Shown in pieces: positions 3,127 through 17,129 of a stretch of DNA of 19,671 nt (positions are counted from its first letter, which is position 1; every line of letters starts with the position of its first letter). The stretch comes from a virus. Taxonomy: Duplodnaviria > Heunggongvirae > Uroviricota > Caudoviricetes. The translations under genes and the position numbers were made by a program. The DNA lies in the IMG/VR virus record IMGVR_UViG_2541047866_000010. One strand, 5' to 3'. The notes below the pieces were generated by a model. The model saw only the letters and a list, made by a program, of their open reading frames with translations, searched no databases and had not been told where the DNA came from.

Positions 3127-3599
3127 ACCTCAATCTCTCTGACCGTTCCGCCAGCCTCTTTGAATTTTGCAATCAGGTTGTCAGCCTTATGCTCGAACTG
3201 ACCATAACCAGCGCCCGGCAGTGAAGCCCAGATATTGCTGCAACGGTCGATTGCCTGACGAATATCACCGCGGTCAATCATCGGTAAAGCGCCACGCTCT
3301 TTAATCTGCTGCAATGCCACAGCGTCCTGACTTTTCGGAGAGAAGTCTTTCAGACCAAGCTGCTTACGGTAGGCATCCCACCAACGGGAAAGAAGCTGGT
3401 AGCGTCCGGCGGCTGTTGATTTGAGTTTTGGGTTTAGCGTGACAAGCTTGCGAGGGTGATCGGAGTAATCAGTAAATAGCTCTCCGCCTACAATGACGTC
3501 ATAACCATGATTTCTGGTTTTCTGCCGTCCGTTATCAGTTCCCTCTGACCACGCCAGCATATCGAGGAACGCCTTACGTTGATTATTGATTTCCACCAT
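3123..3599 (-). CDS. R: Endolysin R (lambda-type lytic transglycosylase)
   Basis: 158 aa [52 protein letters not shown]..., essentially the lambda R sequence as recalled. Confidence 0.95.
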
Positions 3600-3906
3600 C
3601 TTCTACTCCGGCTTTTTTAGCAGCGAAGCGTTTGATAAGCGAACCAATCGAGTCAGTACCGATGTAGCCGATGAACACGCTCGTTATATAAGCGAGATTG
3701 CTACTTAGTCCGGCGAAGTCGAGAAGGTCACGAATGAACCAGGCGATAATGGCGCACATCGTTGCGTCGATTACTGTTTTTGTAAACGCACCGCCATTAT
3801 ATCTGCCGCGAAGGTACGCCATTGCAAACGCAAGGATTGCCCCGATGCCTTGTTCCTTTGCCGCGAGAATGGCGGCTAACAGGTCATGTTTTTCTGGCAT
3901 CTTCAT
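3583..3906 (-). CDS. S: Holin S (class I, dual-start MKM motif)
   Basis: 107 aa [39 protein letters not shown]..., matching lambda S107/S105 as recalled. Confidence 0.95.
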
Positions 3907-4020: not shown

Positions 4021-4061
4021 ACGGGCAAAACGGCATGAGGTTGTTAGCGCAACCTCATGCC
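4021..4061 (-). other. Perfect 12-bp stem hairpin (GGCATGAGGTTG / CAACCTCATGCC, 6-nt loop) followed on the minus strand by GTTTTGCCC
   Basis: Arms at 4032-4043 and 4050-4061 are exact reverse complements. Lies in the Q-S intergenic leader about 150 nt upstream of S. Confidence 0.6.
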
Positions 4062-4495: not shown

Positions 4496-4525
4496 ATTAT
4501 GGCTAAATGGATAATTGCATGTCAA
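4496..4525 (-). promoter_or_regulatory. Candidate late promoter PR' (-35 TTGACA, 18-nt spacer, -10 CATAAT) overlapping the 3' end of Q
   Basis: Read on the minus strand: TTGACA (4525..4520) lies inside the last Q codons, CATAAT (4501..4496) just after the Q stop. Confidence 0.45.
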
Positions 4526-5021
4526 GGTTTTTAACAGCAACATGCTTAACTTTCTCAACACGTTTACGCATTTTGAAAGCATTTTGCATTGGCTGGTATA
4601 AAACAAATAATGACGCTTTCAGGATGTCGTCAATTTCGTTTCTACAGGTTGCCAGTGAAGGTTTTCTCCATCCCTCGCCACCACGTCCACACATCTTGCG
4701 TGGCTTTGCAGTCGCGTGATAGTAGGATGCAATTGCTCGCTTAGATGAACCATGAGCGTAGTAGCTGAGGAGGATGCCAAAGGCTTTCTTGTCAATGTAC
4801 ATGACGGAATCAACGACCTGAGAAATCAACATTCCATCATCATCATTACACATTGGCCTTGTCATAATTCTTCCCGGCTCTACGCTCTCCATGAACTTCG
4901 CTATTACGCTGCTCATGCGCTTTTCCAGACGACCTGAATAAACCCATGCGCCCCACAGTTCAAGCCAGCCATTCAGCCACTCGTGCTGCTCTTTGGTGAG
5001 GTTTAGTTCTCTTATGCTCAT
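4503..5021 (-). CDS. Q: Late antiterminator Q, phage 82/21 type (not lambda Q type)
   Basis: 172 aa with ELWGAWV, RPMCNDDDGMLIS and LLSYYAHG motifs resembling the Q proteins of phages 21/82 as recalled. Position is between the nin region and the lysis cassette. Confidence 0.7.
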   Translation of the reverse strand: MSIRELNLTKEQHEWLNGWLELWGAWVYSGRLEKRMSSVIAKFMESVEPGRIMTRPMCNDDDGMLISQVVDSVMYIDKKAFGILLSYYAHGSSKRAIASYYHATAKPRKMCGRGGEGWRKPSLATCRNEIDDILKASLFVLYQPMQNAFKMRKRVEKVKHVAVKNLDMQLSI

Positions 5022-7790: not shown

Positions 7791-8681
7791 TCAGGCTGCC
7801 AGATCATCGTTTCCGATGGAAGCATAATAAGCTTTTTCTGCTTCTGCCGGAGGAGTATGGCCCAGCCTTTCCAGCAATCGTCGATTGTTATACCAGTCCA
7901 CCCACGTGAGTGTGGCCAGTTCCACTTCTGCACGGTTTTTCCAGCTCTTACGGTGTATTACCTCCGCTTTGTAAAGGCCATTGATGCTCTCCGCCATCGC
8001 GTTGTCATACGAGTCGCCTGTACTTCCTGTTGATGCCAGTAATCCGGCTTCCTTAAGCCGCTGTGTGTAGGCCAGCGATACATACTGAGAACCTTTATCA
8101 CTGTGATGGACTGTGCCGGACGGTCGACGGGCCCATAACGCCTGCTCCAGAGCATCCAGCACAAATGTCGTTTCCATAGACGATGAGACCCGCCACCCCA
8201 CGATGTATCCGGCAAACACATCAATGATGAACGCCACATAGACGACCCCCTGCCATGTGCTGACGTAAGTAGAATCAGCCACCCACAACTGGTCAGGACG
8301 TTCTGCCACGAACTGACGGTTTACGCGGTCGCCTGCGACAACGGCTTTCCGGCTGATGGTCGTACGGACCTTTTTACCACGGAGAACACCGGCAAGTCCC
8401 ATAACCGCCATGAGACGTGCCACAGTGCATCTGGCCACTCTGATACCTTCCCGTAACAACTGACGCCAGACTTTACGCACACCGTATACCTTGTGATTTT
8501 CATCGTATACGCGCTGTATCTCTTTCTTCAGCCAGTCATCGCGCTGCGCACGGGCACTGCGTTTATCCGGATGATGTCGCTGTTGCTGACAGTGGTAATA
8601 CGTTGACGGGGCAATATGCAGTTCGCTGCATAGCGGTCCGACCCCGTACTGCTCACGCAGCTTATCCAGCAGTGGCATCAT
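7791..8681 (-). CDS. insF: IS3 transposase OrfB (DDE integrase domain)
   Basis: [30 protein letters not shown]...; -1 frame relative to orfA with overlap across an A-run at 8678-8690. Confidence 0.9.
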
Positions 8682-9004
8682 TTTTTCCAGAGGCGGTCGA
8701 ACTCCGCCTTCGCAAAATAAGCGGAAGCCTGGCGAAGGATATCGTTACTGCGGCGCAGTTCACGATTTTCACGTTCCAGCTCTTTCAGACGCTGACGTTC
8801 AGCGGTGGTGAGCCCGCCATCACCGCCTCCGGTATCCCGCTCATGCTGGCGTACCCAGACACGCAGAGTCTCCGGTGTACAGCCAATCTTTGGGGCAATG
8901 GAACAAATTGCCGCCCACTGTGAGTCATATTCGCCCTGACTTTCCAGAACCATACGAATCGCCCTCTGACGGACTTCGGGGGAAAAACGAGTATTTTTAG
9001 TCAT
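8678..9004 (-). CDS. insE: IS3 transposase OrfA (HTH)
   Basis: [60 protein letters not shown]... with leucine-zipper-like C-terminus. Confidence 0.9.
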
Positions 9005-12580: not shown

Positions 12581-12874
12581 TTAAAATTCCATTTGTATTT
12601 GATCAGAACGCTCGGTTGCCGCCGGGCGTTTTTTATTGGTGAGAATCGAAGCAACTTGTCGTGCCAATCGAGCCATGTCGTCGTCGACAACACCCCATTC
12701 AAGAACAGCAAGCAGCATTGAGAACTTTGGAATCCAGTCCCTCTTCCACCTGCTGATCTGCGACTTATCAACGCCCACAGCTTCCGCTGTCTTCTCAGTT
12801 CCAAGCATTGCGATTTTGTTAAGCAACGCACTCTCGATTCTTAGAGCCTCGTTGCGTTTGTTTGCACGAACCAT
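12581..12874 (-). CDS. cII: Transcriptional activator CII (lambda type)
   Basis: From ATG at 12874: MVRANKRNEALRIESALLNKIAMLGTEKTAEAVGVDKSQISRWKRDWIPKFSMLLAVLEWGVVDDDMARLARQV..., essentially lambda CII as recalled. Confidence 0.9.
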   Translation of the reverse strand: MVRANKRNEALRIESALLNKIAMLGTEKTAEAVGVDKSQISRWKRDWIPKFSMLLAVLEWGVVDDDMARLARQVASILTNKKRPAATERSDQIQMEF

Positions 12875-12931
12875 ATGTAAGTATTTCCTTAACAAATAAG
12901 AAGTTATGCGCATCAACTTATGCGCGTTGTA

Positions 12932-12975
12932 TTCCCGCATTTCGGCGGGAATGAGGACCATGACTGTTAAAGAGC
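12932..12975 (-). promoter_or_regulatory. nutR (boxA GCTCTTTA plus boxB hairpin TTCCCGC-loop-GCGGGAA)
   Basis: Between cro and cII on the minus strand. The same boxA/boxB pair recurs on the plus strand at 14067-14107. Confidence 0.6.
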
Positions 12976-12982
12976 AATTTGC

Positions 12983-13168
12983 TTATGCCGCTTTGCGGTA
13001 AGCGCTTTCTTGATACATCAGGGCGCCAGCTGTAACGACTTCCAGTCGATAGGCGTCTTTCTCTGGGATGACTTCCTTCCACTGAGAGACTGCTGCGTCG
13101 CTAATGCCTAACGCTTTAGCTACAGCACGCTGGGTTCCGAAGTGGTCGATAACATCTTTCTTGTACAT
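12983..13168 (-). CDS. cro: Cro repressor (P22 type)
   Basis: 61 aa MYKKDVIDHFGTQRAVAKALGISDAAVSQWKEVIPEKDAYRLE..., matching P22 Cro as recalled; divergent from c2. Confidence 0.9.
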   Translation of the reverse strand: MYKKDVIDHFGTQRAVAKALGISDAAVSQWKEVIPEKDAYRLEVVTAGALMYQESAYRKAA

Positions 13169-13248: not shown

Positions 13249-13899
13249 ATGAAAACTCAATTGATGGGAGAGCGCATTCGCGCTCGGAGAAAAGAACTCA
13301 AGATCAGGCAGGCCGCACTTGGAAAGATGGTCGGCGTGTCTAATGTTGCCATATCTCAGTGGGAACGCTCTGAGACAGAGCCAAATGGAGAGAATCTTCT
13401 CGCCCTGGCTAATGCGTTGAAGTGTTCCCCTGACTATCTGATGAAAGGAGAGGAAAGTCTTTCAAACATTGCCTATCACAGTAGGCATGATCCAAGAGGG
13501 TCATACCCTCTGATTAGCTGGGTGAGCGCAGGATGCTGGATGGAAGCTGTAGAACCATATCATAAGCGTGCAATAGATAACTGGTACGATACAACCGTAG
13601 ACTGTTCAGAAGATTCGTTTTGGTTGGACGTGAAGGGAGACTCAATGACGGCTCCGGCCGGTCTCAGTATCCCTGAAGGAATGATAATACTCGTCGATCC
13701 TGAAGTAGAGCCGCGTAACGGGAAACTGGTAGTTGCAAAGCTCGAAGGAGAAAACGAGGCAACTTTCAAGAAGTTAGTTATTGATGCAGGCAGGAAGTTT
13801 CTAAAACCACTTAACCCACAATATCCGATGATCGAGATCAACGGAAACTGCAAAATCATCGGCGTAGTTGTCGATGCAAAACTAGCAAACCTTCCATAA
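13249..13899 (+). CDS. c2: Prophage repressor C2 (P22 type; LexA-like S24 peptidase C-terminal domain)
   Basis: 216 aa MKTQLMGERIRARRKELKIRQAALGKMVGVSNVAISQWERSETEPNGENLLAL..., near-identical to P22 C2 as recalled. Confidence 0.95.
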   Translation: MKTQLMGERIRARRKELKIRQAALGKMVGVSNVAISQWERSETEPNGENLLALANALKCSPDYLMKGEESLSNIAYHSRHDPRGSYPLISWVSAGCWMEAVEPYHKRAIDNWYDTTVDCSEDSFWLDVKGDSMTAPAGLSIPEGMIILVDPEVEPRNGKLVVAKLEGENEATFKKLVIDAGRKFLKPLNPQYPMIEINGNCKIIGVVVDAKLANLP

Positions 13900-13958: not shown

Positions 13959-14020
13959 GAAAGAAAATTTAAGTTTTCTTCAAAAATGCTCTTGACCATT
14001 AATTAAAGAGATCTTAAATT
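13959..14020 (+). promoter_or_regulatory. OL/PL region: P22-type operator (14002-14019) overlapping PL (-35 TTGACC 13992-13997, -10 TAAATT 14015-14020); second near-consensus operator around 13959-13976
   Basis: ATTAAAGAGATCTTAAAT matches the 18-bp consensus exactly; promoter hexamers have 17-nt spacing and point toward N. Confidence 0.5.
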
Positions 14021-14107: not shown

Positions 14108-14420
14108 ACCAAAGAGTAGTTGGCTTTGGGGTGACGTGAAGTGCAGCTGCACGACGGCAACCGGAAGATAAGCACCCGGCGCGTCACCGCCAAAGTCAAT
14201 TCCATAGGCGTTATGCAGCCGCCACCATATTCAAGAAAGCTGCACAAGAGGTAGGAGGATTTATGTGAATGCATAACTTCAAAACCGAGGTTAATTAAAT
14301 CTCTCGATCCGAGCATCGACCTATTAGGTGGCGAGATGCTCTTTCTGCCCCTCAGTTCGAGGGGCCAGAAACCACTTTGCAATCACTATCAATTCCAAAG
14401 TTGTTTCATCGGAGGTCAAC

Positions 14421-14720
14421 ATGACAGTAGTCATTACATATCTGGCTGACGATAACGCCAGAAATCGCCGCAGAGCACGCAGACAGGCTCAACGTGAACA
14501 GGCGATGCAAGAACAGCGACTGGCGCGAAAAATTGCGCTAAAGCTCTCTGGTTGCGTCAGAGCGGATAAAGCAGCATCACTCGGAATCCTTCGCTGCAAG
14601 AAGGCAGATGAAGTCGAGAGTAAACAGAATCGTATTTACTACCGCAAGCCACGCAGTGAAATGGGTGTGACTTGTGTTGGTCGCCAGAAAATGAAATTAG
14701 GCAGCAAACCACTTATTTGA
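14421..14720 (+). CDS. N: N-like transcription antiterminator (arginine-rich motif)
   Basis: From ATG at 14421 (GGAGG 5-6 nt upstream): MTVVITYLADDNARNRRRARRQAQREQAMQEQR..., an arginine-rich motif like lambda/P22 N proteins. First gene after PL/nutL. Confidence 0.65.
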   Translation: MTVVITYLADDNARNRRRARRQAQREQAMQEQRLARKIALKLSGCVRADKAASLGILRCKKADEVESKQNRIYYRKPRSEMGVTCVGRQKMKLGSKPLI

Positions 14721-14728
14721 GGTGATAT

Positions 14729-15199
14729 ATGACAAAATCATGGAGCGTACCTTTTCCTGAATCAGAAACTGAACATGATGGAATGCCTGTTTTCTGGAGA
14801 TTCCAAGCGACAGTTGAAGAAGATGGAATCAAAATATTCGCACTTCAATATATAGCTTTTCATCAGACAGAGCATTATGCATGGTTGGTTCCTGCGCATT
14901 GGATTGTTAATTTTAAACCAGCACCAAATCAGTGGTTACAGGAATGGAAACAAAGGAGAAATAGATATGCAATTAAGAAAGTAGCAAAAAATGCAGAAAG
15001 ATCTTTTGCATTCCCGACGAAGAAACTTGCCATTGAAAGTTTATTGCGCCGGAAGAAATACCATTTGATGAGAATCAAACAAGATTTGGCTGTTGTATCA
15101 ACTCTTGTTGATGGGATGAAGAATATTGATACATCAACACCAGGTATTGAATATAACTTTGGACACAACCAAGAAACAGAAAACTGGGTGTTTTATTAG
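14729..15199 (+). CDS. Hypothetical protein (156 aa), AT-rich accessory gene directly downstream of N
   Basis: ATG at 14729 with GAGGTG upstream; coding region visibly AT-rich relative to neighbours; no recognisable motifs. Confidence 0.5.
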   Translation: MTKSWSVPFPESETEHDGMPVFWRFQATVEEDGIKIFALQYIAFHQTEHYAWLVPAHWIVNFKPAPNQWLQEWKQRRNRYAIKKVAKNAERSFAFPTKKLAIESLLRRKKYHLMRIKQDLAVVSTLVDGMKNIDTSTPGIEYNFGHNQETENWVFY

Positions 15200-15303
15200 T
15201 ACGAATAAGCACTGTGTATTCATTCCAACGAGTGAATACACGGAGCAATGTCGCTCGTAACTAAACAGGAGCCGACTTGTTCTGATTATTGGAAATCTTC
15301 TTT

Positions 15304-15327
15304 GCCCTCCAGTGTGAGGGCTTTTTT
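15304..15327 (+). terminator. Rho-independent terminator (GCCCTC-CAGTGT-GAGGGC then T6)
   Basis: Perfect 6-bp GC-rich stem at 15304-15309 and 15316-15321, followed by TTTTTT at 15322-15327. Lies inside the PL operon, like lambda tL-type terminators that N-modified polymerase reads through. Confidence 0.6.
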
Positions 15328-15393
15328 ATATGCATACCAATAACGCTTCACTCGAGGCGTTTTCGTTATGCAATCAAACAGAAGGAGCATCCT

Positions 15394-15564
15394 ATGCAAC
15401 AGTTCGCTATTGCAGGGGCGGCATCGGTTCGCCCTTTCAACCCGATTTTATCGGTACAGCATTCACGAAAAAACATTTTAACCGGAGCAGACTTTAAACA
15501 ACCAAGAATGAAAAGCTTGCTCGAAAAGCTTTGGGATATTTTGAAACAACAAGGCCGTCCATGA
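15394..15564 (+). CDS. Small protein (56 aa), possibly CIII-like
   Basis: AAGGAG 7 nt before ATG. N-terminus MQQFAIAGAAS and SLLEKLWDILKQQG loosely resemble lambda CIII (MQYAIAGWPVAG...ESLLERITRKL...LIDILNQPG). Weak. Confidence 0.35.
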   Translation: MQQFAIAGAASVRPFNPILSVQHSRKNILTGADFKQPRMKSLLEKLWDILKQQGRP

Positions 15565-15820: not shown

Positions 15821-16426
15821 ATGAGCAAAGAATTTTACGCAAGACTGGCAGCTATTCAGGAGAATCTGAACGCGCCAAAGAATCAGTACAACTCATTCGG
15901 CAAATATAAATACAGAAGCTGCGAAGATATTCTTGAAGGCGTTAAGCCGTTACTGAACGGTCTGTTTTTATCAATCAGCGATGAAGTTGTGTTGATTGGT
16001 GATCGGTATTACGTGAAAGCCACGGCAACTATTACCGATGGCGAAAACAGTCATACGGCAACCGCTCTTGCACGAGAGGAAGAAAGCAAGAAAGGAATGG
16101 ATTCTGCACAAGTTACGGGAGCTACAAGCTCTTATGCACGCAAGTATTGCCTCAATGGTTTGTTCGGCATTGATGATGCGAAAGATGCAGATACAGACGA
16201 GCATAAACATCAGCAGAACGCAGCAGCAAAGCAATCAAAACCATCACTTACACCTGAACAGGTTCTAAAAGCATTCACTGACGCAGCAATGCAGAAAAAC
16301 ACCGTAGAAGAGCTTAAACAGGCGTTCGCCAAAGCGTGGAAGATGCTCGAAGGGACGCCGGAGCAGCACAAAGCGCAGGACGTTTACAACATCAGACGAG
16401 ACGAATTAGAAGGGGCAACTGCTTAA
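15821..16426 (+). CDS. erf: Erf single-strand annealing recombinase (P22 Erf-like)
   Basis: From ATG at 15821: MSKEFYARLAAIQENLNAPKNQYNSFGKYKYRSCEDILEGVKPLLNGLFLSISDEVVLIGDRYYVKATATITDGENSH..., matching P22 Erf as recalled. Confidence 0.9.
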   Translation: MSKEFYARLAAIQENLNAPKNQYNSFGKYKYRSCEDILEGVKPLLNGLFLSISDEVVLIGDRYYVKATATITDGENSHTATALAREEESKKGMDSAQVTGATSSYARKYCLNGLFGIDDAKDADTDEHKHQQNAAAKQSKPSLTPEQVLKAFTDAAMQKNTVEELKQAFAKAWKMLEGTPEQHKAQDVYNIRRDELEGATA

Positions 16427-16832: not shown

Positions 16833-17129
16833 ATGCCAGCGCCTTTGTATGGTGCGGATGACCCGCGCCGCTGTTCCGGCAATTCCGTATCGGAGGTGCT
16901 GGATAAATTCAGAAAAAACTACGATCGAATAATGTCTCTACCGCAGGAAACGAAAGAGGAAAAGGAATTTCGCCACTGTATATGGCTTGCAGAGAAAGAA
17001 GAACGCGAGCGAATTTACCAGACATCAATCCGACCATTCCGCAAAGCCACATATACCCACTTCCCTGAATATATCGACCCGCGCCTGCGTAATTACCGCT
17101 CACGCTATGGCGCTATCAGTAATGACTGA
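16833..17129 (+). CDS. Hypothetical protein (98 aa), possibly Abc2-like anti-RecBCD protein
   Basis: AAGGAT ribosome-binding site; lies just downstream of erf-ssb where P22 encodes abc1/abc2. Sequence-level identification is an unverified recollection. Confidence 0.35.
   Translation: MPAPLYGADDPRRCSGNSVSEVLDKFRKNYDRIMSLPQETKEEKEFRHCIWLAEKEERERIYQTSIRPFRKATYTHFPEYIDPRLRNYRSRYGAISND

Follow-up and report, generated by a model that had tools for sequence, protein, structure and literature searches.

We analysed a stretch of DNA of 19,671 nucleotides (nt) from the IMG/VR virus record IMGVR_UViG_2541047866_000010, hereafter the window, whose genes mark it as the early region of a lambdoid prophage that has modules of P22 type. 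The analysis centred on an open reading frame (ORF) encoding 156 amino acids (aa), which lies directly downstream of the antiterminator gene N, and on the inverted repeat and intrinsic terminator that follow it. These features had been singled out in a reading of the letters alone (the original prediction). The plus strand of the window is the direction of leftward (pL) transcription, and in that orientation N (14421-14720), the ORF (14729-15199) and a block that holds the repeat and the terminator (15209-15330) follow one another. The individual features are the following:

14421..14720, plus strand: allele of antiterminator N, 99 aa, with an arginine-rich N-terminus (named from the annotation in the best phage match)
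14717..14723, plus strand: Shine-Dalgarno sequence GAGGTGA of the ORF, read from the sequence and overlapping the N stop codon (14718-20)
14729..15199, plus strand: AT-rich cargo ORF, 156 aa, ATG start, member of the 933W L0079 family (PHROG 1636)
15214..15241, plus strand: hairpin with a 12-base-pair (bp) RNA stem and a CAAC loop at 15226-15229, left edge of the PreS block, invariant and identical to lambda 34013-34040
15243..15329, plus strand: PreS (LPR1), an Hfq-dependent small RNA (sRNA) with its seed stretch at about 15278-15294, placed by identity to lambda between ral and ea10 and by published primers
15304..15327, plus strand: intrinsic terminator GCCCTC-cagtgt-GAGGGC followed by T6, homologue of tL2a (lambda 33925-33950) and 3' end of PreS, found by a terminator scan

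The 156-aa gene and its family

The start codon of the ORF lies 8 nt past the N stop codon, and the GAGGTGA motif that precedes it was also found ahead of the diverged homologues in loci L098-L102. The guanine-plus-cytosine (GC) content of the ORF is 36.7%, against a mean of 48.1% (standard deviation 2.9) for the 30 other ORFs of the window, and the GC content at third codon positions (GC3) is 29.3% against 50.0% (standard deviation 4.7), which makes it the lowest of the 31 ORFs in both respects. Only 0.4% of all 471-nt segments are equally AT-rich, the minimum being at 14686 and overlapping the ORF. The same tendency was seen in all 14 genomic contexts examined, where the GC content of the gene was 1 to 12 points below that of its surroundings. 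The ratio of non-synonymous to synonymous substitution rates (dN/dS) was 0.03 in comparison with the 933W copy and 0.18 in comparison with a copy of 84% identity; by these measures the ORF is a real gene under purifying selection.

The encoded protein matched the phrog_1636 profile from end to end (E = 1.1e-111, residues 1-156 on positions 1-156 of 156), a family listed as "unknown function". L0079 of phage 933W (AAD25424) is of equal length, shows 99.4% identity over 156 aa (tblastn), falls into the same 90% cluster and is likewise located directly after N, and the H-19B record contains a sequence of approximately 98.7% identity in an unannotated ORF. The gene was present in 88 of 50,697 phage records, mostly of Shiga toxin (Stx) phages (933W, H-19B, BP-4795, Stx2-86 and Min27), with every annotated copy designated "hypothetical", and it was covered in 563 of 5426 complete Escherichia coli genomes, or about one in ten. 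A prophage of E. coli ATCC 11775 is 100% identical to positions 14729-15330, and both N and the ORF are labelled "hypothetical protein" by PGAP there. The copies in 933W, H-19B, BP-4795, Stx2-86 and Min27 represent the same gene with the same hairpin and terminator behind it; the copy in the window differs in lying in a P22-like prophage of the Erf/Abc2 type rather than in an Stx phage, and in nothing else of substance. Its occurrence in many Shiga toxin phages, 933W, H-19B and BP-4795 among them, makes the gene common in phages of clinical importance.

Closer homologues (55-99% identity) were confined to Enterobacterales, and 23 full-length sequences in this range gave a clean alignment. A wide profile search of 1.8 billion representative proteins yielded 87 relatives, most of them 130-160 aa long; all 76 members of the wide alignment matched PHROG 1636, and most also matched PHROG 13631 (function unknown). 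Two long relatives, P0056 and P0080, appeared to offer a domain-fusion clue, which was dropped as the sequences are repetitive or of low complexity. Searches of Pfam (E = 0.1 threshold), NCBIfam and PADLOC gave no match for the ORF or for its remote relatives, a sequence profile search of the PDB gave a best E-value of only 0.58, and a literature search on L0079 and its identifiers found no functional study of any family member. The original prediction, which had described a gene visibly AT-rich against its neighbours, with a proper ribosome-binding site and no recognisable motif, thus agrees with the data on each of these points. The composition clearly departs from that of the flanks, and no characterised homologue emerged, either of which could have gone the other way.

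The PreS block and the slot behind N

The arms of the inverted repeat, GTGTATTCA and TGAATACAC, are located at 15214-15222 and 15233-15241, and as RNA the repeat grows to a 12-bp stem (including one G-U pair) closed by a CAAC tetraloop. The window has three different perfect inverted repeats whose arms measure 9 bp or more and whose loop is 3-12 nt, against a mean of 0.8 hits per shuffle in block shuffles, and among 34-nt folds on the plus strand only one is more stable than this hairpin. Taken alone, the repeat count and the fold rank are modest evidence. Stronger evidence comes from 35 sequence variants of the downstream region in related loci, since the hairpin was unchanged in all of them; neither arm of the terminator stem was changed in almost all, while the terminator loop varied freely. 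The terminator has a 6-bp stem with five GC pairs followed by T6, which constitutes an Hfq-type 3' end, and the 139-nt stretch 15197-15335 as a whole folds at z = -5.2 relative to shuffles.

Positions 15209-15321 proved to be identical, base for base, to lambda 33933-34045 in the ral-ea10 interval, including the seed and the terminator stem; the block as a whole (15209-15330) corresponds to lambda 33925-34045. In lambda this interval encodes LPR1/PreS, described in a 2024 preprint as an Hfq-dependent sRNA of the lytic cycle with its 3' end at tL2a, about 88 nt long and shortened by processing to about 68 nt; PreS activates dnaN translation, supports phage DNA replication and was found in 2,537 genomes by its authors (10.1101/2024.10.31.621285). 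Only the T-tract junction differs (GGGCTTTTTT in the window, GGGCGATTTTTT in lambda), so that the RNA encoded here would measure about 86 nt, against 88 nt in lambda. We placed its ends and seed by means of primers P969, P971, P970, P1103 and P1104 of the same study (10.1101/2024.10.31.621285). The homology arm used for the full deletion (P969) ends in ...GAATACACG / ...GTGAATACACG, which puts the 5' end of PreS at position 15243, 1-2 nt past the hairpin; the 3' primer ends in the T-tract, and the seed stretch was placed with P970 and P971. The tL2a homologue would provide PreS with its Hfq-type 3' end. A search of the 3' block against Rfam 15 gave no family, either at the gathering threshold or at E-values up to 5. 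Because PreS has no Rfam family, annotation pipelines will miss it, and the locus deserves to be recorded in prophage annotations. The sRNAs AsxR, AgvB and Pas from prophages of enterohaemorrhagic E. coli were considered as an identity for the block and rejected, as they belong to the late (Q/PR') region.

With regard to the hairpin itself, it most likely marks a processing point of PreS, or else shields the upstream message at its 3' end. For RNase III to cut there as at a classical site, the stem of 12 bp would be short, and RNase E cleavage just downstream of the hairpin would therefore be the more likely route. The scan for terminators found no terminator-like site between pL and 15304, and no promoter-like site was found there either in what was a consensus scan only. 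Since no terminator-like site lies between pL and the tL2a homologue, PreS may be independent of N in this type of phage.

We then compared the distribution of the ORF and of the block. When positions 14729-15330 were searched for in 5,426 complete E. coli genomes, 2,238 of them (about 41%) had a match, at up to six places per genome. Approximately 1,675 genomes matched only the 3' part of the query, without the ORF, and the examples listed cover the hairpin-PreS block. The partial matches listed start at query positions 473-481 (15201-15209 of the window), and most of them span the hairpin, the sequence behind it and the terminator. The block is thus about four times commoner than the ORF in these genomes.

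Homology breakpoints between related loci cluster at three places, namely at the 3' end of N, at 15199-15207 and at 15327-15332 within the terminator T-tract. Upstream of the 122-nt block lies ral in lambda, a gene annotated as "antirestriction Ral family protein" in two E. coli prophages, and an Nmad5 gene in a third. To survey the slot more widely, 80 IMG/VR contigs were fetched by the exact 28-nt hairpin sequence and the genes upstream of it were read, with the following result:

Ral: 27 of 80 loci
156-aa ORF: 16 of 80 loci
SieB, on the opposite strand: 9 of 80 loci
Nmad5: 8 of 80 loci

Further cargoes were a 62-aa protein, a 149-aa predicted membrane protein, a DUF7446 protein, a 293-aa protein and others. 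The cargo genes sampled had GC contents of 31-45%, and true Ral from the slot scored E = 1.6e-48 on PF11058. Ral and the 156-aa ORF occurred together in none of the 80 loci, against about 5.4 expected (27 x 16 / 80; Fisher p = 5.5e-4, for loci that are not independent of one another). The Nmad5 cargo is a protein of 207 aa with "nucleotide modification associated domain 5" (PF18757, E = 1e-70), encoded directly upstream of the PreS hairpin at 2338-2961 of locus L105 and in L108 plus seven further IMG/VR loci.

In one contig (L185) the cargo is a 107-aa acidic protein, the orf184 of Silas et al., whose gene ends 45 nt before the PreS hairpin. This protein is reported to lie in one accessory region with ral and to trigger the gop-beta-cII abortive system (10.1101/2023.04.06.535777), and its presence in L185 identifies the slot with the "ral accessory region" of those authors.

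Lambda ral thus shares with the ORF its place between N and the PreS/tL2a block, and in lambda it is ral, here the 156-aa ORF, that lies upstream of PreS. Ral is likewise encoded by a small, AT-rich, non-acidic gene of the pL operon; however, the two proteins show no sequence similarity and differ in length (66 aa for Ral, 156 aa for the ORF protein). Ral, the restriction-alleviation protein of lambda, acts by enhancing methylation by type I systems, and this mechanism cannot be assumed for the ORF protein.

Taken together, the breakpoints and the survey indicate that the ORF is one exchangeable cargo of the known ral accessory region, in which the block would serve as the fixed right-hand junction for the exchange of cargo genes. 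By identity and distribution the hairpin and the terminator are a separate, already described RNA module (lambda PreS plus tL2a) and not part of the ORF gene. The locus as a whole is accordingly best explained by two independent modules, a cargo gene and an RNA block, an explanation that we hold with moderate confidence. It should be underlined that the protein had already been catalogued as hypothetical, that the RNA block was known, and that this kind of cargo is known as well.

The original prediction had located a perfect inverted repeat at 15214-15241 and a terminator at 15304-15327, and both are indeed found there. It had also assigned the ORF to a place where lambdoid phages keep anti-restriction or exclusion genes, and the finding of Ral, SieB, Nmad5 and orf184 between N and the same hairpin bears this out. 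In treating hairpin and terminator as features of the ORF it was mistaken, as the block follows ral in lambda and is so much commoner than the ORF, and what it had called a gap between the two is the body of the sRNA.

The predicted protein and its possible roles

An AlphaFold (AF2) model built on the 76-sequence alignment had a predicted local distance difference test score (pLDDT) of 95.1 and a predicted template modelling score (pTM) of 0.81. The predicted fold is a single domain: residues 19-30 and 33-46 pair as a long, bent beta-hairpin, further strands run from 50 to 55 and from 83 to 86, and a helix of 33 residues (98-130) accompanies two short ones. The model had no clear match among solved structures, including none to Ocr or ArdA; the comparison also covered Tudor/KOW/SH3-like small beta-barrel proteins that bind RNA polymerase (CarD, the UvrD C-terminal domain, PipX-like). 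Foldseek against viral models returned 12 relatives at E <= 1e-3, all uncharacterised and from very diverse phages, among them Erwinia phiEa2809, Achromobacter phiAxp-3, Delftia RG-2014, Tenacibaculum Gundel_1 and Cellulophaga phi17:2.

The protein is basic, with an isoelectric point (pI) of 9.27 (family median 8.95) and a net charge of +4, and residues 57-130 contain 17 K/R against 5 D/E. Neither the sequence nor the model shows an evident transmembrane segment. The residues conserved over the wide family (G33, E/Q46-T47, K87, A101 and K109) do not seem to point to an enzyme. The model thus suggests a compact, basic, cytoplasmic alpha+beta protein without enzyme-like motif, and the pI, the basic segment and the conserved residues argue for binding rather than catalysis. 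T7 Ocr and ArdA are strongly acidic DNA mimics that are made very early and are non-enzymatic. A DNA mimic of this type was considered and is excluded for the ORF protein by its charge and by the lack of a structural match.

The genomic neighbourhood of the homologues varies. In three more lambdoid contigs, which encode proteins of 71-83% identity behind other N alleles, the homologue again lies directly after N. In Pectobacterium and Brenneria prophages (L089, L090, L093, L094 and L095; 57-63% identity) it lies ahead of xis-int with no other gene in between. Each of these five loci has a terminator behind the homologue, and the four with upstream sequence also have an intrinsic terminator in front of it, which ends about 25 nt from the ATG, too close for the gene to have its own promoter there. 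In these prophages the homologue thus forms an insulated cassette at the opposite end of the early-left operon. In Salmonella phage NX263 (L102) and the related contig L098, the homologue heads a short unit transcribed against the structural genes, and NX263 has a TTGACG-17-TATAGT site 42 nt upstream of it. Remote relatives head, or sit within, arrays of small early genes; altogether the family member is the first gene of a divergently transcribed early unit in L085, L087, L088, L098 and L102. A terminator follows the gene in nine of 11 diverged contexts, and in the window that terminator is part of PreS. The hairpin is missing from the diverged loci L098-L102 and L089-L095.

From the start next to N, the scan results, the N-adjacent or promoter-proximal homologues and the remote relatives in early-gene arrays, we infer that the ORF is expressed early. 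It would be translated from the pL transcript just after N, and its product would probably appear along with N as soon as lytic growth begins, independently of antitermination, because no terminator-like site was found ahead of it. The occurrence of structural relatives across very diverse phages, probably not all of them temperate, suggests a role in the lytic cycle. The protein may act by binding nucleic acid or a host protein in the conflict between phage and host, most likely by neutralising a host defence or taking over a host function early in infection. A counter-defence role, suggested by the position in the slot in analogy to its neighbours there, is a plausible but tentative proposal. 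That PHROGs 1636, 13631 and 25384 form one phage-specific family of early counter-defence or host-takeover proteins, with a fold unseen in solved structures, appears somewhat unlikely, and equally doubtful is the accompanying notion that this family extends from Stx-converting phages and P22-like prophages to many phages that are unrelated and infect other hosts. If it were true, host immunity would face a second, so far overlooked inhibitor encoded in the ral slot of Stx phages. The place in the ral slot, the probable expression early in lytic growth and the confident but unmatched fold make the ORF worth including in anti-defence screens.

Several observations weigh against this interpretation. 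No homology links the protein to any defence system. A position in this hotspot counts for little, as exclusion genes (SieB) and unknowns are found in it too, and the phages phi367 and phi296 carry ral and the ORF in tandem, which shows that the ORF is not simply a substitute for Ral. In the Pectobacterium and Brenneria prophages the homologue, as the last gene before xis-int, is not immediate-early. The screen of 200 accessory genes by Silas et al. (10.1101/2023.04.06.535777) did not include this ORF, and so provides no phenotype for it. As to the RNA block, the role given to the hairpin is inferred only from its invariance and its position 1-2 nt from the 5' end of PreS.

The strongest of the competing explanations, although in itself unlikely, is that the protein has nothing to do with defence and instead serves as a nucleic-acid-binding regulator or host-takeover factor, which for instance binds DNA or RNA or docks on RNA polymerase and thereby tunes early transcription, replication or the lysis-lysogeny decision. 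Its basic character with the strongly basic central segment would fit such a function, as would the location next to N and the leading position in the divergent early units of the five loci named above. However, the ORF is a dispensable gene of patchy occurrence (563 of 5426 E. coli genomes, 88 of 50,697 phage records) and is swapped with unrelated cargo, a pattern that fits an accessory gene and not a core regulator. Moreover, the half-site of the hairpin is not enriched elsewhere in the window, where eight matches were found against 4.0 expected, a count reached by 10 of 200 shuffles.

A superinfection-exclusion or abortive-infection "moron" that benefits the lysogen is a clearly less probable explanation. 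Two features typical of such genes were found, namely the atypical composition, with GC below the surroundings in 14 of 14 contexts, and the terminator after the gene (in five of five Pectobacterium and Brenneria loci, with another before it in four of four); the slot, moreover, also accommodates SieB and the 149-aa predicted membrane protein. A promoter of its own, in contrast, was not found, as the consensus scan gave no sigma-70-like site between pL (13992-14020) and the ORF, and in the Pectobacterium and Brenneria loci the upstream terminator lies so close to the ATG that the gene is unlikely to be expressed from a repressed prophage. The lack of an evident transmembrane segment and of a PADLOC match also speaks against exclusion, as do the structural relatives in very diverse phages, one of which, phiAxp-3, we take to be an N4-like virulent phage.

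Finally, it is extremely improbable that the palindrome is a DNA operator or RNA target of the ORF product and that gene and hairpin form one unit: the perfect 9-bp half-sites stand 10 bp apart immediately past the gene of a basic protein, and the two always occur together in ORF-bearing E. coli loci, but the distribution contradicts such a unit, since about 1,675 E. coli genomes match the 3' part only, the hairpin follows ral in lambda and is absent at the diverged loci, and the half-site is not enriched in the window.

The early-left operon and other features of the window

The order on the plus strand upstream of the ORF is cI, its terminator, a pL-like promoter, a nutL-like site and N. Besides the elements listed above, the window contains:

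12581-12961, minus strand: CII
12983-13168, minus strand: P22-type Cro
13249-13899, plus strand: LexA-like cI repressor
13992..14020, plus strand: pL-like promoter TTGACC-17-TAAATT, 3' of cI and its terminator (consensus scan only)
about 14338..14366, plus strand: nutL-like site, a boxA-like TGCTCTTTC followed by a boxB-like hairpin GCCCCTC-AGTTC-GAGGGGC (sequence reading, inverted repeat)
15394..15564, plus strand: cIII-like small ORF, 56 aa, MQQFAIAG..., next gene of the leftward operon (from the ORF list; the equivalent position is that of cIII in related phages)
15821-16426: ERF recombinase
16833-17129: Abc2 anti-RecBCD protein

By its place relative to cI and N, which corresponds to lambdoid gene order, the pL-like promoter presumably gives rise to the common transcript of N, the ORF and PreS. 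The nutL-like assignment is putative and made by likeness to lambdoid nut sites. With regard to N, phage vB_EcoP-611R6, the best match with approximately 97% DNA identity over the region, has the matching gene annotated as antitermination protein N, and the Pfam N_peptide model gave a weak hit (E = 0.0016, under the cut-off).

The 56-aa ORF at 15394..15564 presumably resembles lambda CIII, and a Pfam search with it gave no match. Right after tL2a there is a second inverted repeat (15331-15372; TGCATACCAATAACGCTTC / GAGGCGTTTTCGTTATGCA, 79% complementary), which is common to one alternative right-hand flank in related loci. Within this repeat region, shortly before the cIII-like ORF, a weak terminator-like site was found at 15342-15361.

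The prophage also contains an insertion sequence of the IS3 family on the minus strand (7791-9004), with overlapping orfA (8678-9004) and orfB (7791-8681) and an ALIL frameshifting pseudoknot (RF01497) at 8607-8723 (120 bits, E = 3e-31). The GC content of this region, 53-57%, is above that of its surroundings. The most stable local hairpin of the window is located at 4032-4061, between the minus-strand ORFs 4503-5021 and 3583-3906; it has a perfect 13-bp stem (GGCATGAGGTTGT-TAGC-GCAACCTCATGCC, -23.7 kcal/mol) and may, at a guess, be a terminator of the late region.

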